NCBI GenBank assembly: GCA_035505095.1
Contig: DATJRE010000239.1
Location: 14,448 to 78,447, forward strand
Direction of reading: 5' to 3'
DNA: 64,000 nucleotides
Origin: Bryobacteraceae bacterium
Lineage (GTDB): Bacteria > Acidobacteriota > Terriglobia > Bryobacterales > Bryobacteraceae
Shown here: positions 38,973-58,083 of the stretch, in pieces
How the letters are laid out: each line of letters starts with the position of its first letter
How positions within the stretch are numbered: the first letter of the stretch is position 1
Translations under genes and position numbers: made by a program
Notes under the pieces: model-generated
Database searches by the model: none
Seen by the model: the letters and a program-made list of their open reading frames with translations, nothing else
Told to the model about the DNA's origin: nothing

Positions 38973-41618
38973 TTACTCGGAGCGCAGCATGGCCACCGGG
39001 TCGATCTGTACCGCGTGGAATACCGCCGGCAGTGCGGCCCCCAAGGCAACCGCCAGAATAGCCAGCGACGGGAGCGCCAGCATGACGGGATCGCCGGGCC
39101 GCACCTGGTAGAGTAGCGCCTCCAGATACCGCCCCGAGGCCATACCCAGTGCCAGACCGGCCGCGGCCCCGGCGCCGACCATCAGGAAGACTTCCGCGGT
39201 AACCCGCCGGGCGATATCGCCGGCCTGCGCGCCGATGGCGATGCGAATCCCGATTTCGCGCCGCCGCGCGAGCACTGAGTAATCCAGCACGCCGTAGAGA
39301 CCAATGCCCGCCAGCACCAGCGCGACCGCCCCGAAGAAGAGCGCCAGCATGGCCAGCAAACGCTCACGCACGGTCTGGCCGCGAACAATTTCGGCTTCGG
39401 TGCCGATTTCGCTGACGCGGAAATCCGGCCGCGCCTCGGGCACCGCGCGGCGCATGGTGGAGGCGAGCGCCAGCGGGTTCGCCGCGGCGGTGCGTACCAG
39501 GATGGCGGCACTGCCGATGGGCCGGAAGGCGCCCTTCCCATCGATGCCGCGAAAGGGAGTATACGCCACCGGCAGAATCGGCTCGTGCAGGCTGCGGTAG
39601 GGGCTGTCGGGAACCACTCCGGTTACTTGATAAACATTGGCCCCCCTCGCGAAAGTCTTTCCGATGGGACTCTCCCCATGGAAGAACTGCCGGACGAATG
39701 TCTGGTTGATGATCGCCGCGCCGGGAGTGGTCTCGTCCGGGCGGAATGGCCGCCCCTCAATCAGCGGAATCTTCATGGTGTCGAGCCAGCCGGGCGAGAC
39801 TGGCAGAAAGTAAGCCAGAACCGGGCCGGGCGGCGCACCGTCGATCGACACGAAGCTATTGGTGGAGTTCCCGGTCAGCAAGGGCCATCCGGCCAGGGCC
39901 ACCTTCTCCACGCCGGGCACCCCGCGCAGGCGATCGGCCACCTGCTCCCAGACCACCGGCGGCTGGGGACGCGACGGAATCACCGTGAGCGTCAGAATTC
40001 GATCCGCGGAGAAGCCCAGGGGCCGGTGCGATAACCGGTCGAAGGTGGCCACGAACAGCCCGGCGACGAACAGCACCAGAATGCAGAAGGCGGCCTGCGC
40101 CGCGATCAGCAAATGCATCAGGCGCCGCCGCGCGTGCGGGTCTTGGCCGCCTTTGAGGGCGCTCGCGGGTCGGGTGGCCGAAGCGCGCAACGCCGGAGCC
40201 AGGCCCAAGAGCACGGTGACCAGCACGGCCAGGGCCGCGCCGAATCCCCACACGCGCCAGTCGGCCGGCAGCGCCAGCCGCACCGGATGCCCGGGCGAGC
40301 CAATGCGGCCCACTACGAACGGCGCGGCCCACCAGGCGAACAACGCGCCGGTCGCGGCGGCCAGAGCGGCCAGCATGGCGCTTTCCACCATCACCAGTTG
40401 CACCAGGCGCCCGCGCCCCGCGCCGATGGAGACACGCAGCGCCATTTCGCGGGCCCGCGCGGCGGCCTGGGCCATCATCAGATTCGCCACATTGGCGCAG
40501 GCAATCAACAGCACCAGGATCACCAGCACGCCGCCCGCCAGCAGGCCGCGGCGGTATTGCTCCTGTAAGTCGGAAAACCCCGCGGCGGCCGGCTCCAGGA
40601 TGACGGTGTTGTCGATGAACTGCTCGATGAACTTCTTCGTCATCCCGGTGAAGCCCTTGGCCCGCTCCCTTTCGAAGGCGCGCGAAGTGGCATCCAGCCG
40701 TGCGCGGAGCGGTTCCAAGGCGGTGCCCGGGTAGACCCGCGCGAGCGTCCGAATCCAGGTGGTGTCGTCGCGCACGACCCGGGGATCCATCATCGTAGGA
40801 AGGAAAATGTCGGTCACGGTTCCGGTTTCCGTGCCGGTGAATGGCTGCGGACCGACGCCCACAATCTCGAAGAGCCGGTCATCCAGCCGAAAAGTGCGGC
40901 CGATCGCTTTGGGGTCGCGTGCGAAACGGCGCGACCAGTAGTCGTAGGAGAGCACCGCGTACGGATGCGCGCCCGGCTTCAAATCGTCGTCTTCGGTGAA
41001 CAGCCGCCCGAGCGCCGGCCGCAGCCCCAACGAACCGAACATCCACCCGGAAATATATTGCACGCAGGCCTTCTCCATATCCTGGTCCGACCCGTAGGTC
41101 AGATCGTTCCGCTCGGCATAGGAGACCGCGATCAACTCGGCCCGCCCTTTTACGGCCGCCCGCATCAGGCGGAAATCCGGATAAGCCCAGCCATCGAAGC
41201 TCTGCGGCCGGCCATCGAAACCGATTCCCTGCCGGGCGAGGGCGTACATTTGTTCCGGGTTGGCCACCGGCAGCGGACGCAGCAGCAGCGCATCGATCAG
41301 CCGGAAGGCCCCGGTGCAGGCCCCGATGGCCAGCGCCAGCGACAGCACCGCCGCGGCCGAGGTTACTTTGCGCTTGGTGAGCTGCCGCCAGCCGAAAACC
41401 GTATCCGCGCGCAGCGATTCCAGCCACGCCACCAGCCGGATGTCGCGGCTTTCTTCGCCCTGCCGCAGCAGGGAGCCGAAGGCTCGCCGCGCTTCGGCGG
41501 GATCGCGGCCCTCGGCGACGGCCTCCTCGATGTGCAAACGCTGTTCTTCGTCGATCTCGCGGCTCAACCGCTCGCCGCGAAGGGTATTGGCGATTCTCGA
41601 CCAAAGCGACATATTCAC
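38973..41618 (-). CDS. MacB-like duplicated ABC-transporter permease (ADOP-type; two MacB_PCD plus FtsX modules)
   Basis: 881 aa. N-terminal cytoplasmic helix, then TM-periplasmic domain-3TM, repeated twice. FtsX-type loop RRREIGIRIAIGAQAGDI and the first-half equivalent REMALRVSIGAGRGRL. Confidence 0.85.
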   Translation of the reverse strand: MNMSLWSRIANTLRGERLSREIDEEQRLHIEEAVAEGRDPAEARRAFGSLLRQGEESRDIRLVAWLESLRADTVFGWRQLTKRKVTSAAAVLSLALAIGACTGAFRLIDALLLRPLPVANPEQMYALARQGIGFDGRPQSFDGWAYPDFRLMRAAVKGRAELIAVSYAERNDLTYGSDQDMEKACVQYISGWMFGSLGLRPALGRLFTEDDDLKPGAHPYAVLSYDYWSRRFARDPKAIGRTFRLDDRLFEIVGVGPQPFTGTETGTVTDIFLPTMMDPRVVRDDTTWIRTLARVYPGTALEPLRARLDATSRAFERERAKGFTGMTKKFIEQFIDNTVILEPAAAGFSDLQEQYRRGLLAGGVLVILVLLIACANVANLMMAQAAARAREMALRVSIGAGRGRLVQLVMVESAMLAALAAATGALFAWWAAPFVVGRIGSPGHPVRLALPADWRVWGFGAALAVLVTVLLGLAPALRASATRPASALKGGQDPHARRRLMHLLIAAQAAFCILVLFVAGLFVATFDRLSHRPLGFSADRILTLTVIPSRPQPPVVWEQVADRLRGVPGVEKVALAGWPLLTGNSTNSFVSIDGAPPGPVLAYFLPVSPGWLDTMKIPLIEGRPFRPDETTPGAAIINQTFVRQFFHGESPIGKTFARGANVYQVTGVVPDSPYRSLHEPILPVAYTPFRGIDGKGAFRPIGSAAILVRTAAANPLALASTMRRAVPEARPDFRVSEIGTEAEIVRGQTVRERLLAMLALFFGAVALVLAGIGLYGVLDYSVLARRREIGIRIAIGAQAGDIARRVTAEVFLMVGAGAAAGLALGMASGRYLEALLYQVRPGDPVMLALPSLAILAVALGAALPAVFHAVQIDPVAMLRSE

Positions 41619-45553: not shown

Positions 45554-46183
45554 ATGCGGTCTGTCCCTCGCGCCAGGCGCCGGCTGGGCTTTTTCGGCGG
45601 CTTGGCCGTGCTGTTCCTGTGCGCGGTGGGTCTCTTCGCCATTCTGCAGCCATGGTCCTTCCACATCGGCGGCCGATGGACGCCCACCACCACCTGGTAT
45701 GGAGTGGGCCGGCTGCGCGACTCCACCGGCGCTCAGTATGGCTTGTACCTCTCCTTCTTTCCCGATAACACCTCGGACGGTGAAGGCGGGCTGCGCAGCG
45801 GACCCATGTTGCGCCACGACCTGCGTGGGAAGGCTACGGTTTGCACTGCCGGCGGCGCGCAGTACCGTTTCGACGTCCAGGGCGAGATTACAGGGGCCTG
45901 GCTGCGCACCGATGGCGCAGCAATGTTCCTCTCGCTGGGCGAGCCCCGCGGCCCCAAAATCCCGCGCTCTTTCAGCCTGTACGGTGCCTGGCATGGCCCG
46001 GAGCTGCCGCTCGACGATCACAAGACCATGTTCATGAACTTCCTTCCCGACGGCACTCTCACCCCATCCGGCCACTACACTGCCCCGGTCCCGGAAAAGC
46101 ACGCTACCGTCACGCTCTCCTGGGGTTCCGAAAGCGACTTCGAGACGTTATGCGCGGACCTGCGCAGTGTCCCCGGCCGATGA
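45554..46183 (+). CDS. hypothetical membrane-anchored protein
   Basis: 209-aa ORF with an N-terminal TM (LGFFGGLAVLFLCAVGLFAIL) followed by a beta-rich soluble region. No family recognised. Confidence 0.5.
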   Translation: MRSVPRARRRLGFFGGLAVLFLCAVGLFAILQPWSFHIGGRWTPTTTWYGVGRLRDSTGAQYGLYLSFFPDNTSDGEGGLRSGPMLRHDLRGKATVCTAGGAQYRFDVQGEITGAWLRTDGAAMFLSLGEPRGPKIPRSFSLYGAWHGPELPLDDHKTMFMNFLPDGTLTPSGHYTAPVPEKHATVTLSWGSESDFETLCADLRSVPGR

Positions 46184-46682: not shown

Positions 46683-48008
46683 TCACCGCCCCCACGGAAT
46701 GGTTTCGAAAATGTTCCGCAGGCGCCGGGCCTTGGCGGGATTAATCATCTCCACGAAGCCGATCCGGCCCGTCAGGTGCGCTCGAAAATCCGCAAGTCCT
46801 TCGCGGTTCTGCGAGGCGGGGCCGCGCCGTGCGCAGTTGATCAGCACCGCTTCCAGCAGTTCGAGGTCGCCGCGGCGAAGGTTGAGCTTTCGGTTCACCA
46901 CCATCCCCGCGAGACTCTGCCGCACGCCTTGCCGCATCATGCGGGTCTTGTGGTGGTTGACGCTGAAACCCTCCTCCAGGGCAACCGCTGCCGCATGGGA
47001 GGCGAAGCGGCCGGCCACCCGGCGGAACTCTGCATCCCCCGAGAAAGCCAGATCGTCGGCGTAGCGCGTGTACACTGCGCCGGCCGACCGGGCCAGGCCG
47101 GAGAGGCGGCAATCCAGGCGGTACGCCGTGATGCTGGCGAGCGCCGGCGAGGTGGGCGCGCCTTGCGGCAGGTGCCGCCGCGCGTACACCGTGTGCGCCT
47201 CCCGCCATTCCGCGGCGCCGATTTCGAGCGGGCGATGGCCCCACGCGTCGCCCGGAACCGCGTTGGTGCAGAGGCCGCCCAGGCCGTCCGCAACCGCCTC
47301 CGGATAACCCAGCGTCCGGAAGAAGGCTTGCACCCGCGCGGCGGGAAATGCGGGGAAGAAGTCCTGCAAGTCGAGGCGCAACACAACCTGCCGGCCGGCA
47401 TGCGGCGCGGCAAAACTGGCCACCGATCGCCCTCTGACGAATCCGTGGGCCGCCGGGTGGGGCGGAATGCGGTCGAGAATCTCGCGTAAGATCCACCGCT
47501 GCAATTCCTTGATTTGCGGCTTGGGGATCTCGATCAGGCGCACGCCGCCCGAGCGCTTGGCGCGTATCCGGTAACGGTAGTGGCGGAGCTTCGGATTATC
47601 GAGCTTGCAGCCGAGACCTTTCAGATCGGCAAACCACTCCAGTTCATCCGGCTGCAGGGACAGCCATCGGGCCAGGTCGCCCACCGTTTCGATCGCGGGA
47701 AGATCCCAGTGCGCGGCGGCGGCCACCGGGCGCATGCGCTGCGGCTCGGGGAGCCAGACGGCCACCGAGAGCTTATCGCGATGGGCGGCGCGCTGAAAAC
47801 CCGCGTCCCCCAGCAGGAATCGGATCACGTCGCGGTGGCGCGGACGGGTGCGCCCGGCGAATGCCTCCACGTAGCGTTGGGCCAAGGGCCGCAGCCAGCG
47901 CCAGGGCCGGCCCAGCGTACGCATGGCCCGTACGTGGACACTCTCGACCGTCGGCTCCCCGGCCATCAGGCTTCGGGCCAGGGCGCTGATCACGGCCGCG
48001 GCGGGCAT
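46683..48008 (-). CDS. retron-type (retron-like) reverse transcriptase with ~130-aa N-terminal extension
   Basis: RT motifs in order: RLIEIPKPQIKELQRWIL, AHGFVRGRSV, LRLDLQDFFPAF, LPQGAPTSPALAS, YTRYADDLAFSG, FSVNHHKTRMM, LAGMVVNRKLNL. A retron-like tail HLTGRIGFVEMINPAKARRL follows. Confidence 0.85.
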   Translation of the reverse strand: MPAAAVISALARSLMAGEPTVESVHVRAMRTLGRPWRWLRPLAQRYVEAFAGRTRPRHRDVIRFLLGDAGFQRAAHRDKLSVAVWLPEPQRMRPVAAAAHWDLPAIETVGDLARWLSLQPDELEWFADLKGLGCKLDNPKLRHYRYRIRAKRSGGVRLIEIPKPQIKELQRWILREILDRIPPHPAAHGFVRGRSVASFAAPHAGRQVVLRLDLQDFFPAFPAARVQAFFRTLGYPEAVADGLGGLCTNAVPGDAWGHRPLEIGAAEWREAHTVYARRHLPQGAPTSPALASITAYRLDCRLSGLARSAGAVYTRYADDLAFSGDAEFRRVAGRFASHAAAVALEEGFSVNHHKTRMMRQGVRQSLAGMVVNRKLNLRRGDLELLEAVLINCARRGPASQNREGLADFRAHLTGRIGFVEMINPAKARRLRNIFETIPWGR

Positions 48009-48013
48009 ACCAG

Positions 48014-48190
48014 ATGGCGGCGGAAGACTTCAACCAGTCTGACTTGGCGTGAGCGGAACTGCCTGCTCGCCATCGCAGAGAGGCTCACGCGACGAAATGG
48101 CGAGGGGACACTCTCCCCCGGGGTAGCCCCGGAGAGGCCAACCGAGCCCGCAAGCCCGATTGCACCGTGCTTGAAAACCTCCACCGCCAC
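48014..48190 (-). ncRNA. candidate RT-associated structured ncRNA (msr/msd-like), bounded by a 13-bp a1/a2-like pairing
   Basis: On the minus strand, GUGGCGGUGGAGG (48190-48178) can pair with CUUCCGCCGCCAU (48026-48014): 10 WC plus 3 GU pairs. Two perfect 8-bp stems and two short hairpins lie between, and a third 8-bp stem spans the a1 arm. TATCAT sits 5 nt upstream. Boundaries are hypothetical. Confidence 0.3.
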
Positions 48191-48233
48191 AGCACATGAT
48201 AGCAACCTGGCGAACCGGCGCGAGGGCTCGGAC

Positions 48234-49487
48234 TTACTGCTCGATCCCCAGCGATGCCGCCACGCGCACCAGCGTCGAAACCAGCCGCTGTACGTGTTTC
48301 TCGGTGTGGGCGGCGGTGCAGGAAATCCGCAGCAGGTTCTGCGCGGCGGCCGGCCGCAGCACCGGGTTGATGTAGATGCCTTCTTCCAGTAGCGCCTTGC
48401 ACAGCCGGCACAAATCAATCTCTTCCTCAATCACCACCGGCACGATGGCGGTTTCGCCGGGCAGCACCTGGAAGCCGCGGGCGCGCAGTTCCTCGCGCAG
48501 ATAGCGCGCCACCTTCAGCAGGCGCAGGCGGCGCTCCGGTTCGTCGCGCATAATTTCCAGCGCTGCGGCCACCGCCGCTACCGAGGCCGCCGGCAGGCTG
48601 GCGGAGAAGACAAACGGCCGGGCGGTGTGCTTCAGGTAATCCACCACCGCGCGGTCCGCGGCGATGAAACCGCCCACCGAAGCCAGCGACTTACTGAACG
48701 TGCCCATGACGATATCCACATCGTCCAGCACGCCCAGGTGCTCGGCGGCGCCGGCGCCGGTTGGTCCCAGGACGCCGATGCCGTGGGCTTCATCCACGTA
48801 CACCCGCGCGCCGTACGGCTTGGCCAGCTTGAGAATGCCGGGCAGGTCGGCGATGTCGCCTTCCATGCTGAAAACCCCTTCGGAGACGATCAGGATTTTG
48901 TCGTCGGGCGGCGTGTTCTCCAGGCAACGCTCAAAGTGCTCCAGGTCATTGTGGCGGAAACGCATGGTGCGGGCCGGCGAGCGCAGGGCGCCCTCCACCA
49001 GGCTGGCGTGCAGGTTGTGATCGCAGATCATCACGTCGCCCTTCTCGGTAAGCGCCGACAGGGTGGCGTAATTGGCTTGAAACCCGGTACCAAAAATAAT
49101 GGCGGCCTCTTTGTGTACGAAGGCCGCCAGTTCGCTTTCCAGCTTGACGTGAATATCGAGGGTGCCGTTCAATAGCCGGGAACCGCTGCACCCGCTGCCG
49201 TACCTCTTTACCGCGTGGGCGGCGGCTTCCTTCACCTTGGGATGCGTAATCAGGTCCAGGTAATCGTTGGACCCGAACATCAATACCTTGCGTTTCCCCA
49301 TGCGGACTTCGCCCGGCCCGCAGCCATCGCGATCGCCAAAGACTTCAAAGTACATATACAACCCGGCGGATTGCAGATCACTCGGACGAGTGAAGTTGCG
49401 GCATTTCTCGAAAATGTCGTTGGTTCCGCGGGCCTTTCCTTTGCCGGTGATGTCGCCAGTCGATACGCGCATGGTCCTCAGTTCCAT
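48234..49487 (-). CDS. alpha-oxoamine synthase family PLP enzyme, serine palmitoyltransferase-like
   Basis: FGSNDYLDL...YGSGCSGSRLLNGT...DEAHGIGVLG...VMGTFSKSLASVGGF (PLP lysine). The overall layout resembles bacterial Spt rather than short BioF. Start 49487 or 49472. Confidence 0.85.
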   Translation of the reverse strand: MELRTMRVSTGDITGKGKARGTNDIFEKCRNFTRPSDLQSAGLYMYFEVFGDRDGCGPGEVRMGKRKVLMFGSNDYLDLITHPKVKEAAAHAVKRYGSGCSGSRLLNGTLDIHVKLESELAAFVHKEAAIIFGTGFQANYATLSALTEKGDVMICDHNLHASLVEGALRSPARTMRFRHNDLEHFERCLENTPPDDKILIVSEGVFSMEGDIADLPGILKLAKPYGARVYVDEAHGIGVLGPTGAGAAEHLGVLDDVDIVMGTFSKSLASVGGFIAADRAVVDYLKHTARPFVFSASLPAASVAAVAAALEIMRDEPERRLRLLKVARYLREELRARGFQVLPGETAIVPVVIEEEIDLCRLCKALLEEGIYINPVLRPAAAQNLLRISCTAAHTEKHVQRLVSTLVRVAASLGIEQ

Positions 49488-50593
49488 TCGTAGATTCGGT
49501 AGGTCTTGTAGCGCTTGGCCCCCATCAGTTCCAGGGAGCGGTTCATCAGGGTATTGTCTTCCAGTATCCAGGACATCTCAGTTTCGCCGTAGCCCAACTG
49601 TCGCGCGTTGCGGACCAGGGTTGCGTAAAAAGCTGCCGCTACGCCGGAAGTGCGGTACTCCTCCACCACGCCCAATGCGAGAACTCGTACACTTCGGATC
49701 AAACGTTGATAATACAGGATTTTGAGCAAACCGGTGGGAAGTAATTTGCCGCCCGCGGGTTTCAGCGCCTGGTTGATGTCGGGCAGGGCCAGCGCGAAAC
49801 CCACTACTTTGCCCTTTACCTCGCCAATCAGTACCAGGCTGGGCTTTAGAATCTGCTTCATCTCCTTGCCCTGCAAGACGAACTCTTCGCGCGACATGGG
49901 GATGAAGCCCCAGTTGCTCACCCATGCCTTGTTGTATACCTCCCAGACTTTCTCTACCTCGGCGTCGAAATTCTTCATATCGATGGGGCGGACCACCACC
50001 CCGTTTTTGGCCAGCGCGCGGCTCGAAACGCGCTCGATTTTGTCGATGTCGATGGTGTTGGCGTTGCTCACGTACGCCAGCAGGTCTTTGGCTTTCTGCA
50101 GCCCCGCCTGCTCCATCAGGGCGGGGTAGTAGCGGTGATTGTAGGTCATCATCACCATGGGGCTGGAATCGAAGGCATCCACCAGCATGCCGCACTCGTA
50201 ATTGGTGGAAGGATTCACGGGGCCGCGCAGGAAACGCGCGCCGCGTCCCGTTACCCACTGCCGCGCGGCGCTAAGCAGCGCCTTGGCCACCGCCGCGTCG
50301 TTGATGCTTTCGTAAAAGCCGAAGAATCCCGCCACTTCTCCGTGGGTCCGGTTGTGGGCTTTGTCGAAAATCGCAGCAATGCGCCCCACCACCCGGCCGT
50401 TCTGCCGCGCCAGGAACAGCTCCGTTTCGGCGTCCTTGTAGTACGGGTGTTTGGCCTTGTCGAGCAACTCCTTCACAGCGATCCGCAACGGCGGCACCCA
50501 ATAGGGATCGCCGCGGTAAATTTCGTAGGGCAGTTCCACGAACTGATGAAGGGCCTTTTTGTCCTCAACCGCAGCGATCTCAATTCCCGCCAA
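49478..50593 (-). CDS. GNAT-fold N-acyltransferase-like protein (candidate bacterial ceramide synthase)
   Basis: 371 aa with a TTG start. Two acyl-CoA N-acyltransferase-like halves (ELFLARQNGRVVGRIAAIFD... and LIGEVKGKVVGFALALPD...LALGVVEEYRTSGVAAAFY). The function is inferred from context. Confidence 0.55.
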   Translation of the reverse strand: MAGIEIAAVEDKKALHQFVELPYEIYRGDPYWVPPLRIAVKELLDKAKHPYYKDAETELFLARQNGRVVGRIAAIFDKAHNRTHGEVAGFFGFYESINDAAVAKALLSAARQWVTGRGARFLRGPVNPSTNYECGMLVDAFDSSPMVMMTYNHRYYPALMEQAGLQKAKDLLAYVSNANTIDIDKIERVSSRALAKNGVVVRPIDMKNFDAEVEKVWEVYNKAWVSNWGFIPMSREEFVLQGKEMKQILKPSLVLIGEVKGKVVGFALALPDINQALKPAGGKLLPTGLLKILYYQRLIRSVRVLALGVVEEYRTSGVAAAFYATLVRNARQLGYGETEMSWILEDNTLMNRSLELMGAKRYKTYRIYEWN

Positions 50594-51458
50594 TCGTCAC
50601 ACTCCCATTGGAAAGTCTCCGGTACAAGACGGGGGCAAACCGGATCAGCAGAAACGCCAACACTGCTCCCGCCAGCAAGTCGACCGTATAGTGGTATCGA
50701 AGATAAACTGTAGCAAAAATGATGCAAAGAGTGTAGGCAAAATAAGCCCGGAATAGCCGATTTGAGACCATCCGGCTGCCCCACCACGCCAGGATGGTGA
50801 GCTCCGTGTGGCCGCTCGGGAAACAGTCGTAATGCGCGGATTCCAAACGGTCCAGCGTGCCCTGCATCCAGTGGAACAGCCAAAGTCCTTCTAACGGCGC
50901 ATGTTGCAAATGGCGCAGCAGAAAACGCGGGCCCCGCGCCGGCACCACGAGGTACCCGCCATAGGAGGTCAGAAAGCCCAGGGCGATTAGAAATGCAAGA
51001 TATTGGAACTCCCCGTAGCGGCCTCTTTTCCAGATCAGGAACGGAATCAGTAGTACCGCCGGTACAAATAAGGTGTAGACAACCTGCAAAAATTCAGTTA
51101 AGGCTGGAGTCTGCACCCGCTCCAGCCAGACAGTCGGATTGGCGTGCCAGAAACGGTAATCCAGGTTCGCCAGCCATTGGTCGAGATCGGTGCGCCGCAC
51201 CGCCGGTACCAGCAGAGCCATTTCCTTGTAACAGGAGGCTACGTAGGGCAGCGGATACCAGTTCCGGAAAACCCAACTGCTACGATTGGGGAATTTCACC
51301 TCACCCACGATCACCGCCAGGGCGGCGGCATGGGCGGCCAGCAGCCAGGGGCCCTCGGCCAGCCGGGACCACCCCAGCAGGATGAGCACCGTGGCGAAGG
51401 CGGTGTAGCCGAAGATCACCTTGTCCACCGCCCAGAAACTGGTCGGCGAGGGTTTCAA
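50580..51458 (-). CDS. PAP2-superfamily membrane protein (PAP2_3 / Aur1-like)
   Basis: Polytopic. C2 motif CFPSGHT and C3 motif RYHYTVDLLAG. I prefer TTG 51458 (TTGA overlap with the upstream stop) over ORF maximum 51587, which would overlap the SDR gene by 133 nt. Confidence 0.7.
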   Translation of the reverse strand: MKPSPTSFWAVDKVIFGYTAFATVLILLGWSRLAEGPWLLAAHAAALAVIVGEVKFPNRSSWVFRNWYPLPYVASCYKEMALLVPAVRRTDLDQWLANLDYRFWHANPTVWLERVQTPALTEFLQVVYTLFVPAVLLIPFLIWKRGRYGEFQYLAFLIALGFLTSYGGYLVVPARGPRFLLRHLQHAPLEGLWLFHWMQGTLDRLESAHYDCFPSGHTELTILAWWGSRMVSNRLFRAYFAYTLCIIFATVYLRYHYTVDLLAGAVLAFLLIRFAPVLYRRLSNGSVTIGGN

Positions 51459-52438
51459 TAGTGGATCCAACCGGCCTCCTTGTACCAGGCCAGGGTGCGG
51501 GCCAAGCCGTCTTCCAGCGGGGTGGCGGCTGCGAAGCCCAGTTCGCGGGCGGCGCGCCGGGGGTCGCAGGTCCAGGCGCGGCAGCACGCCTCGGTGACTT
51601 TATCGCGCGACAAAATGCCCGGCCGGCGTGTCACGCGGGACCACAGTTCGGCGCAGTATGCGGCCACCCGCGCCACGGCCGGCGGGATGCGCAGCACGCG
51701 CACGCGGCGGTTCATAAGCCGCGCGGCCACGGCGGCCAATTCGCTCCAGGACACCACTTTCGGATGGGCCAGAAAATAGGCCCGCCCGGCGGCTTGCGGG
51801 GCCTCTGCTGCGGCGATCAGGCCCTCTGCCAGGTCTTCCACGTAGATAGCGCTGAACCAGCGCTCGCCGCCCGCAATTTCCACCACCAGCCCACCCGAAA
51901 TCGACTTCAGGATCTGGAAAACGTCCGTATCGCGCGGCCCATACACCACCGGCGGCCGTACGATCACCGCATCTGGGCGCCAGCGCGCCGCCATCCGCTC
52001 GGCCTCCAGCTTGGATTTGCCGTATTCCGAAACCGGGTGCGGCGAGGCGTCTTCGGCAATCGGCGCACCGTCCGGGCTGGGACCCATGGCGGCCAGTGAG
52101 CTCACGTGCACAAACCGTATGGGCCGCCCCGCCAGCAAGCGGGCCAGCGTTTCGGTGGCGCGTGTATTGCCGTTGTAATAATCAGCGGCGGCAAGGGCTT
52201 TCGTCACGCCCGCCAGGTGGATCACGGTATCTACCCCATCGAGCGCCGCCTCGATTCCCTGGCCCGTGGTCCAATCCGCCTGCGCCGTCTCCACGCCCGC
52301 CGGAATCGCGTCCTTGCCGTGGGAGCGCGGCTTACCCCGCGCGCGGCGCACCAGGCAGCGTACCCGGATACCCCGCTCGCTCAGTTTCCGCAGCAGATGA
52401 CCGCCGATGAAACCGGTCCCGCCGGTAACCAGGAACAT
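51455..52438 (-). CDS. NAD-dependent epimerase/dehydratase-family (extended SDR) protein
   Basis: MFLVTGGTGFIGGHLLRKL (GxxGxxG) ... VHVSSLAAMG ... YGKSKLEAE (YxxxK). Confidence 0.85.
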   Translation of the reverse strand: MFLVTGGTGFIGGHLLRKLSERGIRVRCLVRRARGKPRSHGKDAIPAGVETAQADWTTGQGIEAALDGVDTVIHLAGVTKALAAADYYNGNTRATETLARLLAGRPIRFVHVSSLAAMGPSPDGAPIAEDASPHPVSEYGKSKLEAERMAARWRPDAVIVRPPVVYGPRDTDVFQILKSISGGLVVEIAGGERWFSAIYVEDLAEGLIAAAEAPQAAGRAYFLAHPKVVSWSELAAVAARLMNRRVRVLRIPPAVARVAAYCAELWSRVTRRPGILSRDKVTEACCRAWTCDPRRAARELGFAAATPLEDGLARTLAWYKEAGWIHY

Positions 52439-53089
52439 TTACTCGGCGGCGCTACGAAAAGCGACTTCGCCGAAGTAGCTTTCCGCGGTGGCCCCGGTGT
52501 GCTGGGAGTTGATCTGGAGGCGCAGCCCCTTCACGTGCGGAGCCGGCTTGCCATAAGCGCGCTGGTAATCGGCCGCCACATTCTGGCTTTCCGAAACCCA
52601 TTGATTCAGCAGCGACGACCCGGATTCGCACACCACCGCGAAGACGTGCACCAGCGGGATGAAGCTGGTGGATTGCGCGGCGCCCTTGGGAGCCGTGGAA
52701 TCCCAGATGTAGCTGACCACCTTGCGGTCGGCGAAAGCCACCAGCACCTGCGCGGCCTGGTCGTCTGTGGAAGCCCGCCGGAAATCGCCTCCCGGTGGAA
52801 TCTGTGCCACCTTCCAACGCCAGGTCAGCACCGGCAACTTGTTGGGGTCCACGTCCACGCTCCGTTCCAGCGAGAAGGACGATTTCACGCTCTTCAGATG
52901 CAAACAACAACCTTCCACGGGCTGGCACACGGAAACGTCGGGTTTTCCGCGGTTCACCTCGATCTTCCAGTCGGTGTTGAACCTTCCAGCGCCCCAGCTG
53001 GCAGTATCCAGAACGATGAGCGCTAAAGGTGAGGTGCGAGCCTGAAAAACGAACACAAGTAGGGTGCCAATGAGCAGTAGCTTCTTCAA
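52439..53089 (-). CDS. DUF3047 domain-containing secreted protein
   Basis: TTG start after GAGG and a signal peptide. LPVLTWRWKVAQIPPGGDFRRASTDDQAAQVLVAF fits DUF3047 as I recall it. The stop abuts the SDR start with a 0-nt gap. Confidence 0.7.
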   Translation of the reverse strand: MKKLLLIGTLLVFVFQARTSPLALIVLDTASWGAGRFNTDWKIEVNRGKPDVSVCQPVEGCCLHLKSVKSSFSLERSVDVDPNKLPVLTWRWKVAQIPPGGDFRRASTDDQAAQVLVAFADRKVVSYIWDSTAPKGAAQSTSFIPLVHVFAVVCESGSSLLNQWVSESQNVAADYQRAYGKPAPHVKGLRLQINSQHTGATAESYFGEVAFRSAAE

Positions 53090-55467: not shown

Positions 55468-57903
55468 TCACTCGTAGCGGAGGGCCACCAGCGGATCGAG
55501 GCGCGCGGCGCGGCGGGCGGGGAGCCATCCGGCCAGCAGGGCCACGGTGGCCAGCAGCAAAGCGACCGCGGCGGCGGTGGCTCCGTCGGTGGGGTGGACT
55601 TCGAACAGGAAAGCGGCCAACACGCGGGTTACCGCCAGCGCGCCCGCCGCACCGGCCGCGAGGCCCAAGGCGATCAGCGCGGCGGCGCGCCGCAGCACCA
55701 TGCGGGTCACGTCTCCGGCGGCGGCGCCCAGCGCCATGCGGATGCCGATTTCGCGCCGCCGCTGCTCCACCGAATACGCCAGCACGGCGTAAATCCCGAA
55801 AGCCGCAAGCGCCAGCGCCAGCAGCGCGAAGGCCGCCAGCAGGCGGGTCTGAAAGAGCGGCTCGGCGGTGGTCTCGGCAACCAGGGACTGCATGGTGGCC
55901 AGCGACTGTGCCGGAATACCGGAGTCGACGTCGCGCAGTGCGCGGCGTAACGCGGGCGCCAGGGCCGCCGGGTTTCCCGGTGTGCGGACCACATACGTCA
56001 TGTGGTCGAGGAAGCCCGCCAGCGTGACCTGCGCGTACGGCTCGTAGATAGCCGGGCTGGCGGCTTGCTTGAGGCCCTGCTGATGGATATCGTCTACCAC
56101 CCCTACAATCGTCAGCCAGTCGCCCGGCCCTGGGCGGTCCTTCATAGACAGCCGCTGGCCGATGGGATCTTCGTTCGGCCACAGCCGCTGGGCCACCTTC
56201 CGGCTGACGATGATCACGCCCGGCGCCGAGGCGTTGTCCGCATCGGTAAATTCCCGCCCCGCGATCAGGCGGATGCCCATGGCGCGGAAGTAGCCGGGGC
56301 TGACGGTCGGTTTGTCTGCCAGGAAACCGCGCGGGCGCCGGCGGCCGTGTTCCATCTGGAAATCGCCTCTGGCCAGGGAATCGCCCAGCGGCCGGAAATT
56401 CACCGCAGCGGCCACGGACACCCCCGGCGCCTGAGCTAGTTCCGCCAGCATCCGTTCATGGAAACCGCGCAGGCTTTGCGCCGTGGGATAAGTGGAGGGC
56501 GGCAGGTCCACCGTCATGGTGAGCAGGTGACCCGAGTGAAAGCCGGGATCCACGGCGCGAATCCGCAGGAAGCTCTTCAGCAGCAATCCGGCGCCGCTCA
56601 GCAGGATCAGGGCCAGCGCCATTTCGGCCACCACCAGCGCGCCGCGCAGCCCTTCGTGGCGGCCGGTCGAGCCGCGGGCCGCTCCCAGGACGCCGCGCTG
56701 TTCCCGGCGTATGGATTGGAGCGCCGGCGCAAGGCCGAAGACGATCCCGGTAGCCAGGGCGACCGCCAAAGTGAAGACCAACGCCGCGGCATCCAGGTGG
56801 ATCTCGCCCAGCCGCGGAATCTTCCCCGCGGGCGCCAGCGCCAGCAGCACCGGCACGGCCCACACCGCCAGCAGCGCCCCCAGCGCGCCGCCGGTAAGCC
56901 AGAGCACCACGCTTTCGGTGAGCAACTGGCGGATCAGCCTCCAGCGGCCGGCGCCGAGCGCCACCCGGATGGCCATCTCCTGCCGGCGGGAAGCGGCGCG
57001 CATCAGCAGCAGGTTGGCGACATTGGCGCAGGCGATCAGAAGCACGAAAGCCACCGCGCCCAGAAACACCAGCAGGGAACTGCGCGATGGCCCGACCACC
57101 ACGTCCTTCAGCGGGATGATGGCCGTTGCGAAGTTTTTGGAATTCTGGGAATCGGCGGCGTACTGATGGTCCATGAGAGTCCGCAACTCGGCCTCCGCTC
57201 GACCCTGCGGAACACCCCCTCTCAGTCGTCCAATCACGCTGAGAGTAAAGGAGTTATGCGAATCGAGCCGGACCGCGCGGGGAGTCCACAGATCGGCGCC
57301 GGGCGGAAAGGCGAAGCCGGGCGGCATAACGCCGGTCACGGTATGGGCCACGCCATCCAGGGTGACCACTTTCCCAAGCACGCTGCGGCTGCCGCCGAAC
57401 TGGCTGCGCCAGAGGTGGTCGCTGAGCAAAACCACGCCGTCGTGGCCAGGAAGGTCGTCGCCTTGCTGGAAGCCGCGGCCGAGGGCTGGAGGCACCCGCA
57501 GCACCGGCAGGAAATCGGTGGTGACCCCGGAGCGCCCCACCCGGACGGGTTCGCTCGCGCCGGCCAGCGCCGCCGGTTGCGCCAGGTCGAAAACGGCCAA
57601 GGGATCGAAAGCTCGCATTTGCCCGCGAATTGCCAGGTAGGCGCTATCGGCGATGCCGATTCCCCCGCCAAGGGCGCGGCGGGGCGGGCCGAACGGGCCG
57701 TCCTTGGGAGTCGAGGTGAGGAAGTAGAGGCGCTCCGGCTGCGGAAAGGGCAGGGGCCGCAGCAGCACGCCGTTGACCACCGTGAAAACGGCAGTATTGG
57801 CGCCGATTCCCAGACCCAGCGCCAAAACGGCGGCAGCGGTGAAGCCGGGGTTGCGAGCCATCATGCGGGCCGCCAGTCGAAGGTCCGGGAGAAAATTGGG
57901 CAT
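55468..57903 (-). CDS. MacB-like duplicated ABC-transporter permease (ADOP-type), second paralog
   Basis: Start MPNFLPDLRLAARMMARNPGFTAAAVLALGLGIGANTAVF. Same two-module architecture as 38973..41618. FtsX loops QEMAIRVALGAGRWRL and RRREIGIRMALGAAAGDV. Confidence 0.85.
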   Translation of the reverse strand: MPNFLPDLRLAARMMARNPGFTAAAVLALGLGIGANTAVFTVVNGVLLRPLPFPQPERLYFLTSTPKDGPFGPPRRALGGGIGIADSAYLAIRGQMRAFDPLAVFDLAQPAALAGASEPVRVGRSGVTTDFLPVLRVPPALGRGFQQGDDLPGHDGVVLLSDHLWRSQFGGSRSVLGKVVTLDGVAHTVTGVMPPGFAFPPGADLWTPRAVRLDSHNSFTLSVIGRLRGGVPQGRAEAELRTLMDHQYAADSQNSKNFATAIIPLKDVVVGPSRSSLLVFLGAVAFVLLIACANVANLLLMRAASRRQEMAIRVALGAGRWRLIRQLLTESVVLWLTGGALGALLAVWAVPVLLALAPAGKIPRLGEIHLDAAALVFTLAVALATGIVFGLAPALQSIRREQRGVLGAARGSTGRHEGLRGALVVAEMALALILLSGAGLLLKSFLRIRAVDPGFHSGHLLTMTVDLPPSTYPTAQSLRGFHERMLAELAQAPGVSVAAAVNFRPLGDSLARGDFQMEHGRRRPRGFLADKPTVSPGYFRAMGIRLIAGREFTDADNASAPGVIIVSRKVAQRLWPNEDPIGQRLSMKDRPGPGDWLTIVGVVDDIHQQGLKQAASPAIYEPYAQVTLAGFLDHMTYVVRTPGNPAALAPALRRALRDVDSGIPAQSLATMQSLVAETTAEPLFQTRLLAAFALLALALAAFGIYAVLAYSVEQRRREIGIRMALGAAAGDVTRMVLRRAAALIALGLAAGAAGALAVTRVLAAFLFEVHPTDGATAAAVALLLATVALLAGWLPARRAARLDPLVALRYE

Positions 57904-58083
57904 GTGCACCTGGGGGTCGTGCGGCACGCCAGCCGCCACTCGGAACGCCTTTGGCATCAGGCGCAAGGGGCCGGCGAGCGAGCCGCGCTGGCCGCCGGTG
58001 GGACCGGCCCTGTCCGAAAGCGGACGCCCGCCGGCCGGAACCCAGCGCGCAAGCTCCTGCTCCGACGGATTACAATCGTGGGT

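Follow-up and report, generated by a model that had tools for sequence, protein, structure and literature searches.

[quoted passage not shown] RT clade 11 was catalogued in 2020 (Mestre et al.), has published covariance models (clade11-A and clade11-B), and has the missing associated effector as a stated property. A sample of its members has been assayed in experiments on RT-DNA production and genome editing, and a survey of 2026 gave the clade the rank 'low novelty priority'. Representatives such as Mestre-1875 from M. xanthus DZ2 and Mestre-1840, -1823 and -1884 from Actinobacteria, follow a stand-alone (msr-msd)-RT plan. The other catalogued lineage mostly without an effector gene is the Retron-Eco5 (Ec107) branch of clade 2. 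Type XIII retrons (RT clade 10: Mx162, Mx65, Sa163 and Ne144) have SWIM/winged-helix (cluster 114) and HEAT/ARM-repeat (cluster 216) genes, and Retron-Eco1 (Ec86, type II-A) works with a nucleoside deoxyribosyltransferase-like effector.

The RT gene analyzed here is found in a stretch of 64,000 nucleotides (the window; contig DATJRE010000239.1), and the locus is very probably a complete stand-alone clade 11 retron on the chromosome of a member of the Bryobacteraceae (Acidobacteriota). It shares with the clade 11 retrons the overall plan, the CUCYCCGGGG-nnA-CCCCGGGG hairpin, the absence of an associated effector and the full-length matches to the profiles RT_other and RT_outgroup, which were obtained with all members tested. 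It differs from them in its acidobacterial host and in the sequence of the RT, which has only ~42-44% identity with those of the myxobacterial and actinobacterial members. Thus, the locus adds a member to a catalogued lineage and is not a new kind of system; no 'type XIV' retron turned up in a literature search.

The RT was assigned to Mestre RT clade 11 indirectly, through the ncRNA of an orthologue and HMM scores. In the census table, the retron Mestre-1875 of M. xanthus DZ2 carries the label rt/clade 11, and its ncRNA agrees at 168 of 184 positions (91%) with the element that precedes the RT gene of the M. xanthus family member (P0148, locus L081); the covariance model R1 scored 48.5 bits on this M. 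xanthus element. Alignment with six published clade 11 ncRNAs revealed the same invariant hairpin and overall plan. The hosts of the family belong to soil phyla (Acidobacteriota, Actinomycetota, Myxococcota, Planctomycetota and Verrucomicrobiota), and this taxonomic spread matches that of clade11-A in the SPIRE survey. The RT, which an earlier note made from the DNA had called 'retron-like or unclassified', therefore very probably has a place in the existing classification.

Reverse transcriptase and its clade-wide traits

The retron RT is encoded on the minus strand (46683..48008) by an ORF of 441 aa with an ATG start, exactly as the earlier note described it. The Pfam family RVT_1 covers aa 151-360, and Pfam searches found no maturase, Cas1 or other extra domain in the protein, in agreement with the same note. 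All top PADLOC matches are retron RT profiles, led by RT_other (E 5.5e-145, 482 bits) and RT_outgroup (retron; E 1.3e-137), both over the full length. These two profiles were also the best full-length matches for the family members from M. xanthus, Pyxidicoccus, Solirubrobacteraceae and Solibacter. RT_XIII ranked third and was the best typed profile (E 2.8e-95, 318 bits, aligned from aa 98), which makes the comparison with Mx162-type retrons, drawn before any database search, an apt one. Like the locus in the window, type XIII retrons are chromosomal, have RTs with a long N-terminus and are in part vertically inherited. The RT_Ec107-like profile gave 166 bits; the Ec107 branch represents a different RT clade with a short RT (~307-aa profile), which has no N-terminal domain.

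The AF2 model of the RT has a pLDDT of 93, and the PDB structures that match it best are those of retron RTs, including Ec86 (PDB 7V9X/7V9U; E 1.7e-21, target TM 0.80, 25% identity over ~339 columns). The two systems share the order of RT motifs, the a1/a2 logic of the ncRNA and an A-G-C branching context. Together with the retron profiles at the top of the search against curated RT sets, where group II and Drt2 NCBIfam models scored only ~29 bits (cut-offs 300-390), these folds uphold the previous proposal of a retron-type RT rather than a group II, DGR or CRISPR-associated one.

Every RT motif that had been read from the sequence is present, including the catalytic YADD (aa 316-319; 47052..47063, minus strand). 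Y316, D318 and D319 are invariant in homologues, and the enzyme is predicted to be active, as was thought probable earlier. Residue alignment with Ec86 placed FAAPH (aa 199-203; 47400..47414, minus strand) at the NATPH sequence of region X (NAxxH), and LAG (aa 366-368; 46905..46913, minus strand) at the VTG of region Y, so that both deviations named in the note are real. Among 57 diverse homologues H203 and G368 are invariant, whereas the Asn of region X is replaced by Phe throughout the clade (motif xAxPH) and the Val and Thr of region Y are lost. According to Mestre et al., the His of NAxxH and the Gly of VTG are the most conserved residues of these retron motifs. By alignment, the RT retains the characteristic residues of both regions and deviates at the less conserved positions.

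The ~30 extra residues noticed in front of LPQGAP correspond to a 30-aa insertion between RT3 and RT4 (aa 248-277; 47178..47267, minus strand), which is kept in the family and occupies a place where Ec86 has ~3 residues. Most PADLOC retron profiles align as two stretches around this insertion, which was modelled by AF2 as helices 253-256 and 265-276. The long N-terminal extension is also genuine, but it had been estimated at ~130 aa, and the part with no counterpart is confined to aa 1-97 (47718..48008, minus strand), because the profiles XIII, III-A and II-A align from aa ~98-102. AF2 modelling of the N-terminus and a fold search, both suggested in the note, yielded a domain of five helices (3-15, 21-32, 39-50, 58-67 and 69-77) with no match in the PDB (best E 2.4 for granulysin/NK-lysin, probability 0.1, treated as noise). 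This domain has no Pfam family, and among 1.84 billion representatives it occurred exclusively as the N-terminal part of RT-family proteins. Ec86 contains neither the insertion nor the five-helix domain. FAAPH, LAG, the insertion and the N-terminal domain recur in homologues, both in a set of 25 close ones and in a set of 57 diverse ones; therefore these features are neither chance nor sequencing artefacts, and all four are clade-wide traits.

More than 100 RT homologues have 65-95% identity, all of them ~440 aa long, with ~70% identity across Bryobacteraceae. The check for decay among homologues proposed in the note revealed YADD or YVDD at 75 of 81 loci and a full-length RT in a single frame at 63 of 81, most of the others being at contig edges or having a diverged N-terminus. 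At four loci, all from metagenome assemblies, the RT is split over two frames, plausibly through indel errors in the assembly.

The msr-msd ncRNA and its predicted product

Upstream of the RT gene and on the same strand, we found a retron ncRNA (msr-msd) of ~176 nt (48016..48191, minus strand), with its a2 side ending 6-8 nt before the RT ATG. The covariance model R1 scored 137.5 bits on this element (E 5.8e-29), its sole match in the window, and detected a counterpart immediately before the RT gene, in the same orientation, at about 77 of 81 loci, many of them outside the seed. Covariation was assessed across 36 loci, and 23 of the 31 pairs in the consensus fold showed compensatory changes. 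The covariation score was 0.314 compared to 0.146 for shuffled alignments (none of 500 shuffles reached the observed value), and 93.5% of the cells were paired, whereas slid controls paired at 40-50%. The single-sequence fold of the ncRNA had a z-score of -3.28; in single-sequence folds of the window element and of locus L001, an alternative pairing of CTCGCCAT with ATGGCGAG competes with the consensus msd stem. Rfam contained no family reaching the gathering threshold anywhere in the window, and at E values up to 10 only chance-level matches were obtained in 47900-48300.

The ends of the ncRNA form an inverted repeat supported by covariation, in which arm a1 (GTGGCGGTGGAGGTTTTCAA; 48171..48190, minus strand) pairs with arm a2 (TTGAAGTCTTCCGCCGCCAT; 48014..48033, minus strand). 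Changes on both sides were observed in 11 of the 12 pairs of a1/a2 helices 1-2, and the geometry of the repeat is kept in nearly all loci. The candidate branching G (48170, minus strand) lies in an invariant CAAGC directly after the a1 stem, a position that fits the retron model of Mestre et al., and A20, A21, G22 and C23 of the ncRNA are invariant in 28 sequences. It is opposed by G48034 (minus strand) just 5' of a2, which is invariant in the same number of sequences (...ACTSG|TTGG), so the inner ends of the predicted arms carry the opposed Gs typical of retrons. The 2'-OH of G48170 would prime cDNA synthesis.

Between the arms, msr hairpin 1 (48136..48166, minus strand) is variable in sequence and conserved in structure, with a hairpin of at least 5 bp predicted in this segment at 28 of 28 loci, their sequences differing. 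In contrast, the alignment columns of msr hairpin 2 (CUCCGGGG-CUA-CCCCGGGG; 48116..48134, minus strand) are near-invariant, and its helix is also supported by covariation. This hairpin, which is common to the published clade 11 ncRNAs, is a probable recognition element for the RT and the putative region where it stops. The msd hairpin (GCGTGAGC...GCTCACGC; 48047..48090, minus strand) comprises consensus helices 4-6, in which 9 of 11 pairs show compensatory changes. The element thus has the a1/a2 repeats, the msr hairpins and the msd stem-loop of a retron ncRNA, on the strand of the RT. The 'retron-like' of the earlier note was right about the RT and too weak for the locus, since this adjacent ncRNA had been missed and its presence turns 'retron-like' into 'retron'.

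Upstream of the ncRNA, comparison of loci revealed an extended -10-like box (TGCTATCAT; 48196..48204, minus strand), which is also a conserved block in the upstream alignment. At 32 of 64 loci the pattern TGnTAnnnT is found in the same place relative to the ATG (-190 to -196), compared to 2.2 expected from shuffling. A generic sigma-70 promoter scan did not call this box because it has no -35 match; its conservation suggests that it is likely the promoter from which ncRNA and RT are transcribed together. Among acidobacterial loci, the ncRNA varies unusually little and the box is conserved.

The msDNA template was delimited by homology with the clade 11 retron 1840, whose sequenced RT-DNA matches positions 56-142 of its ncRNA exactly over 87 nt and ends 6 nt into the 3' arm of hairpin 2. 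The corresponding template in the window would be ~75-87 nt long (48035..48121, minus strand), and the predicted msDNA has the plus-strand sequence of this segment; it is much shorter than the 162 nt of the type XIII element. Its predicted fold has an energy of -17.6 kcal/mol, with the msd stem also forming in DNA. RT-DNA has been sequenced for the clade 11 census terminals 1840, 1894, 1913, 1914, 1925 and 1928, and from these relatives a branched msDNA can be predicted for the window locus. Editing in human cells has been reported for census retrons 1823, 1875, 1884, 1895 and 1913. Terminals 1856 and 1912 gave no RT-DNA, and the closest tested relative, M. xanthus 1875, produced 0.022x the Eco1 level by PAGE in E. 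coli, with no sequenced RT-DNA.

Combining these features with the general retron model, a single transcript probably starts at the -10 box (48196-48204) and would comprise first the ~176-nt msr-msd ncRNA and then the RT gene. As covariation shows, the ends of the ncRNA pair (a1/a2) and enclose two msr hairpins and an msd hairpin. The RT would then bind the ncRNA, probably at the near-invariant hairpin 2, prime from the 2'-OH of G48170, and copy the msd from just 5' of a2 to about the invariant hairpin, which is expected to give a branched msDNA of ~75-87 nt with a stem-loop.

Neighbourhood, alternative explanations and possible role

No effector gene and no fused effector domain accompanies the RT, and the sole extra domain is the N-terminal helical bundle. 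All-against-all clustering of the ORFs within 6 kb on either side of 81 loci grouped the RT alone, with no neighbour cluster present in more than five of them; the ORF proxy used in this clustering is crude for high-GC DNA, and the Pfam-annotated contexts agree with its result. PADLOC and Pfam searches of 20 window genes (~27.8 to 60.9 kb) detected no defence genes and no effector near the RT, whose neighbours in the window are metabolic genes. The only PADLOC match among them was the generic AAA+ domain of a sigma-54 activator to RtcR models. There are no tRNA or tmRNA genes in the window and hence no signature of tRNA-linked integration. With neither an effector nor a defence neighbourhood, the term 'defence-type' used in the earlier note was not sustained.

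Because type XIII provides the best typed profile (2.8e-95), and its RTs likewise have long N-termini and vertical inheritance, the locus might be an Mx162/Mx65-like retron whose accessory SWIM/winged-helix and HEAT-repeat genes were lost or are located elsewhere in the genome. This explanation is very unlikely: RT_XIII scored 318 bits compared to 482 for RT_other and aligned only from aa 98, leaving out the N-terminal 97 aa; SWIM and HEAT genes are neither a conserved feature of the 81 loci nor present in the ~36 kb scanned in the window; and the census gives the M. xanthus orthologue the label of clade 11 and not of clade 10/XIII. Scarcely more probable is a mode of action like that of DRT2 or DRT9, in which the cDNA itself (a concatemer or homopolymer) would be toxic or protective rather than an msDNA-effector complex. 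The missing effector gene, the very high conservation of the ncRNA and the presence of DRT2 and DRT9 RTs among the weaker fold matches would suit it, but these folds matched with E values of 1e-9 or worse compared to 1e-21 for retron RTs. The Drt2 NCBIfam model also remained far below its cut-off, the ncRNA has canonical a1/a2 arms with opposing Gs, and the sequenced clade 11 RT-DNAs are single msd copies.

The deviations from NAxxH (first position) and from VTG (first two positions), as well as the RT split over two frames at 4 of 81 loci, could point to a decaying or inactive relic or to another RT class (group II intron, DGR or CRISPR-associated). This reading is effectively refuted and its probability is negligible, given the intact frames and catalytic motifs at most loci, the uniform length of more than 100 homologues at 65-95% identity, the low score of the group II model TIGR04416 and the lack of a maturase, Cas1 or other domain. 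In NCBIfam searches, the models for group II, Drt2 and Drt3a gave 29.3, 29.8 and 11.4 bits (cut-offs 300, 390 and 200, respectively), and fold matches to group II, DGR or DRT2 RTs were at least 10 orders of magnitude weaker than those to retron RTs.

For a stand-alone clade 11 retron, the gain for classification is small, as the clade has already been catalogued. The locus is instead a clean example for the question of effector-less retrons, with an RT and an ncRNA under strong constraint among housekeeping genes, and the only distinctive addition of clade 11 is the N-terminal domain, for which no fold relatives were detected. In place of an adjoining effector gene, the RT carries this clade-unique five-helix domain. 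Our best guess is that the RT-msDNA complex would act as a sensing or sequestering module, its partner being encoded elsewhere or provided by its own N-terminal domain. We tentatively suggest, as one possibility that is itself rather doubtful, that clade 11 retrons are self-contained and effector-less, with the five-helix domain replacing the accessory protein as a sensor, scaffold or effector, or with the msDNA domesticated for a cellular function. Between anti-phage defence and a domesticated cellular role, defence may be only slightly more likely, and this choice is a guess. Direct tests of the function are feasible in M. xanthus, a genetically tractable organism that has an orthologue.

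The RT identity of ~70% in Bryobacteraceae, the near-invariance of the ncRNA across phyla and the housekeeping neighbourhoods are compatible with a self-contained or domesticated element.

The reverse transcriptase and its family

The reverse transcriptase (RT) gene lies at positions 46683-48008 of the window on the minus strand, exactly as an earlier sequence-based note had placed it, and encodes from an ATG start a protein of 441 aa with a Pfam RVT_1 domain (aa 151-360) and a YADD motif (aa 316-319). Its best PADLOC matches are all retron RT profiles. RT_other (5.5e-145, 482 bits) and RT_outgroup (annotated "retron", 1.3e-137) cover the whole protein including the N-terminus, and are followed by the type XIII profile (318 bits). 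The NCBIfam models for group II intron RT/maturase, Drt2 and Drt3a gave only 11-30 bits against cut-offs of 200-390. An AlphaFold2 model built from a 57-sequence alignment was confident (mean pLDDT 93, pTM 0.88), and its best PDB fold match was the Retron-Eco1 RT Ec86 (E 1.7e-21, target TM 0.80). The further top matches were also retron RTs (Eco2, Eco7/Ec78, Ec83, a type I-A retron and Eco8), with weaker matches to the RT folds of DRT2, group II introns, G2L4, DGR and DRT9 (E 1e-9 or worse). Profiles and folds therefore agree with the proposed retron-type RT and do not place it in group II intron, DGR or CRISPR-associated clades.

Residue-level alignment to the solved Ec86 RT confirmed three proposed departures from the retron signatures. 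FAAPH (aa 199-203) stands opposite NATPH of Ec86 at the NAxxH position (region X), LAG (aa 366-368) opposite VTG (region Y), and about 30 extra residues (aa 248-277) separate RT3 from LPQGAP, where Ec86 has about three. The N-terminal extension is also present, but its size had been overestimated at ~130 aa: since the PADLOC profiles XIII, III-A and II-A align from aa ~98-102, the segment without a counterpart is aa 1-97. This segment forms five helices in both the full AlphaFold2 model and a domain-only model (pLDDT 87), and a Foldseek search against PDB returned no significant match; the best one, granulysin/NK-lysin, was disregarded (E 2.4, probability 0.1). With aa 1-133 as the query, exhaustive phmmer searching of 1.84 billion representative proteins turned up 453 relatives. 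Among the matches listed, the region is at or near the protein start in nearly all, no protein exceeds 471 aa and many are contig-truncated fragments, giving no evidence of the domain outside the RT family.

The RT has more than 100 relatives of ~440 aa at 65-95% identity, the named ones being from Bryobacteraceae or Solibacter, and a scan of species-representative genomes detected at least 594 relatives in taxa including Acidobacteriota, Planctomycetota, Verrucomicrobiota, Burkholderiales, Myxococcota, Actinomycetota (Solirubrobacterales) and Alphaproteobacteria. The catalytic Tyr, Asp and Asp, the region X His and the region Y Gly are invariant in 25 close and 57 diverse members. In a set of 81 related loci, 63 contain a full-length, single-frame gene and 75 retain YADD or YVDD; among the other RT genes, most lie at a contig edge or are divergent at the N-terminus, and four of the 81 are split over two frames. 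Judged by sequence conservation, this family is large, intact and constrained, not the decaying element that homologues with frameshifts or without YADD would have indicated, and the enzyme is predicted to be active.

The msr-msd RNA

The earlier note had overlooked the partner RNA, a non-coding RNA (ncRNA) in the 225-nt gap upstream of the gene. The gap contains an inverted repeat bracketing ~130 nt, a geometry which recurs in almost every related locus with a span of 165-180 nt. In these loci, CCAA closes the 5' arm and is followed by GC, TTGG opens the 3' arm, and ~8 nt separate the element from the RT ATG; arm sequences vary between loci with complementarity kept. A MAFFT alignment of 36 loci revealed the order of elements from the 5' end: arm a1, an invariant CAAGC, a variable hairpin, a near-invariant hairpin (CCUCUCYGGGG-YUA-CCCCRGGG), an msd-like hairpin, an invariant G and arm a2.

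RNAalifold predicted 31 pairs, of which 23 show compensatory changes. On this structure 93.5% of the cells were paired versus 84.2% in shuffles, and the covariation score of 0.314 (0.146 shuffled) was reached by none of 500 shuffles, while sliding the partners as a control reduced pairing to 40-50%. The variable hairpin forms in all 28 of 28 sequences despite their sequence differences. No Rfam family matches the ncRNA. A covariance model built from 28 sequences has its sole match in the 64 kb at 48016-48191 (minus strand, 137.5 bits), and in about 77 of the 81 loci, many of them outside the seed, it places one full-length copy directly ahead of the RT gene and in the same orientation; the others are atypical or lack upstream sequence. 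Upstream of a1, an extended -10-like box (TGnTAnnnT; 48196-48204 in the window) occurs at a fixed distance in 32 of 64 loci (2.2 expected).

One atypical arrangement is found in Fimbriiglobus (Planctomycetota; locus L054, 5203-5295), where a partial match (model positions 60-152) sits about 680 nt upstream of the RT start instead of abutting it. In the window and one related locus (L001) only, CTCGCCAT (48097-48104, minus strand) and ATGGCGAG (48066-48073, minus strand) can pair, displacing the family consensus msd stem in single-sequence folds; this may be a lineage-specific alternative msd conformation or chance.

Retron lineage and gene neighbourhood

Retron RTs have been divided into 11 clades, of which clade 11 and a branch of clade 2 are stand-alone (msr-msd)-RT cassettes without an associated protein (Mestre et al. 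2020). For clade 11, a 2026 SPIRE survey credits Mestre et al. with two msr/msd structural families (A and B); the survey itself records clade11-A from Pseudomonadota, Actinomycetota and Acidobacteriota and gives it a low novelty priority. Terminal 1875 in the retron census of Khan et al., a retron of Myxococcus xanthus DZ2, carries the label rt/clade 11 there, and its ncRNA sequence is given. The M. xanthus member of our family (P0148, 442 aa) has the same best PADLOC profiles as the window RT, RT_other and RT_outgroup, and the element that the covariance model detects upstream of it (L081, 7808-7983) is identical to the 1875 ncRNA at 168 of 184 positions; the invariant hairpin is common to other printed clade 11 ncRNAs. 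On this basis, the window RT is assigned indirectly to clade 11, and the locus is an addition to an already catalogued retron lineage.

Clustering of all ORFs within 6 kb on either side in the 81 loci yielded the RT itself as the sole conserved cluster (77 loci), with no neighbour found in more than five. No defence model matched the RT-flanking genes or ten further genes (~27.8-60.9 kb of the window) except for a sigma-54 activator, matched through a generic AAA+ domain. The window RT is flanked by a run of aminotransferase, GNAT, PAP2, epimerase and DUF3047 genes on one side and a convergent DUF2277 gene on the other, a context shared by a 95%-identical relative (L082). A 73%-identical Bryobacteraceae relative lies beside PhoH-YbeY-CorC-Era and AraC genes, and the M. 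xanthus copy has genes for an ECF sigma factor, an Mrr-like nuclease and RNase H as neighbours. Thus, genomic position is not conserved beyond close relatives, and the surroundings are housekeeping regions, not defence islands.

In M. xanthus (L081, 9346-11035), the RT is followed, in convergent orientation, by a DUF8426 + Mrr_cat (restriction-endonuclease-like) gene and the RNase H gene, a pairing not conserved in other loci, yet suggestive given the role of RNase H in msDNA maturation. The co-directional run at 48234-53089 (minus strand; SPT/KBL-like PLP aminotransferase, GNAT-like protein, PAP2-family membrane protein, NAD-dependent epimerase, DUF3047), also present in L082, resembles a sphingolipid- or ceramide-type lipid synthesis cluster. 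Its aminotransferase is intact in the window (417 aa) and called as two fragments in L082 (6249-6882; 146 and 69 aa), which points to an indel error in the assembly or to a genuine pseudogene. A 209-aa ORF at 45554-46183 (plus strand) has coding-like GC3 (0.80) and no Pfam or PADLOC match; L082 has a gene of similar size (191 aa), with no recorded Pfam match, between the isochorismatase and DUF2277 genes. Two large MacB_PCD/FtsX-type ABC permease paralogues (881 and 832 aa) are encoded less than 17 kb apart at 38973-41618 and 55468-57966 (both minus strand).

Proposed mechanism and function

The locus combines an intact retron-fold RT with a covarying msr-msd ncRNA whose arms each have an invariant G at their inner end. 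By analogy with the established retron mechanism, the RT would bind this ncRNA, the G that follows a1 (window 48170) would prime synthesis through its 2'-OH, and the msd would then be copied. For the clade 11 terminal 1840, 87 nt of the sequenced RT-DNA exactly match ncRNA positions 56-142 (Khan et al., supplement 3), a span running from just 5' of a2 to six nt into the 3' arm of the invariant hairpin. The RT-DNAs of terminals 1894, 1913 and 1928 stop 3' of this hairpin, and that of 1925 reads through it. By homology, the template in the window would be about 48035-48121, giving an msDNA of ~75-87 nt with a stem-loop.

Such unit-length RT-DNAs, together with the fold and HMM scores, speak against a DRT2/DRT9-like system whose effector would be the cDNA itself. 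A type XIII retron (Mx162/Mx65-like) that has lost its accessory genes is likewise disfavoured by the profile scores (318 bits for XIII versus 482 for RT_other), by the non-homologous N-terminal segment, which precedes the start of the XIII alignment at aa ~98-102, and by the clade 11 label. The readings as a relic or as an RT of another class are refuted by how conserved the family is and by its scores. The favoured hypothesis for the function of the cassette is a module for sensing or sequestering, paired with an in-built partner or one encoded in trans, and its role may be in defence or a domesticated one. What makes the locus of interest is the question of what effector-less retrons do, together with the N-terminal domain unique to them.

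RT-DNA production by clade 11 members in E. coli is mixed, with terminal 1928 at 2.5x Eco1, 1894 at 0.16x, 1913, 1925 and 1875 at 0.02-0.06x, and none from 1856 and 1912. Precise editing in human cells has been obtained with several members, among them 1875 at 10.9x Eco1. The 1840 RT-DNA as reported begins with 8 nt (GGTGGGCG) that correspond to ncRNA positions 7-14 in the a1 region and not to the template complement, which may reflect leftover branched msr RNA or an artefact of the consensus.
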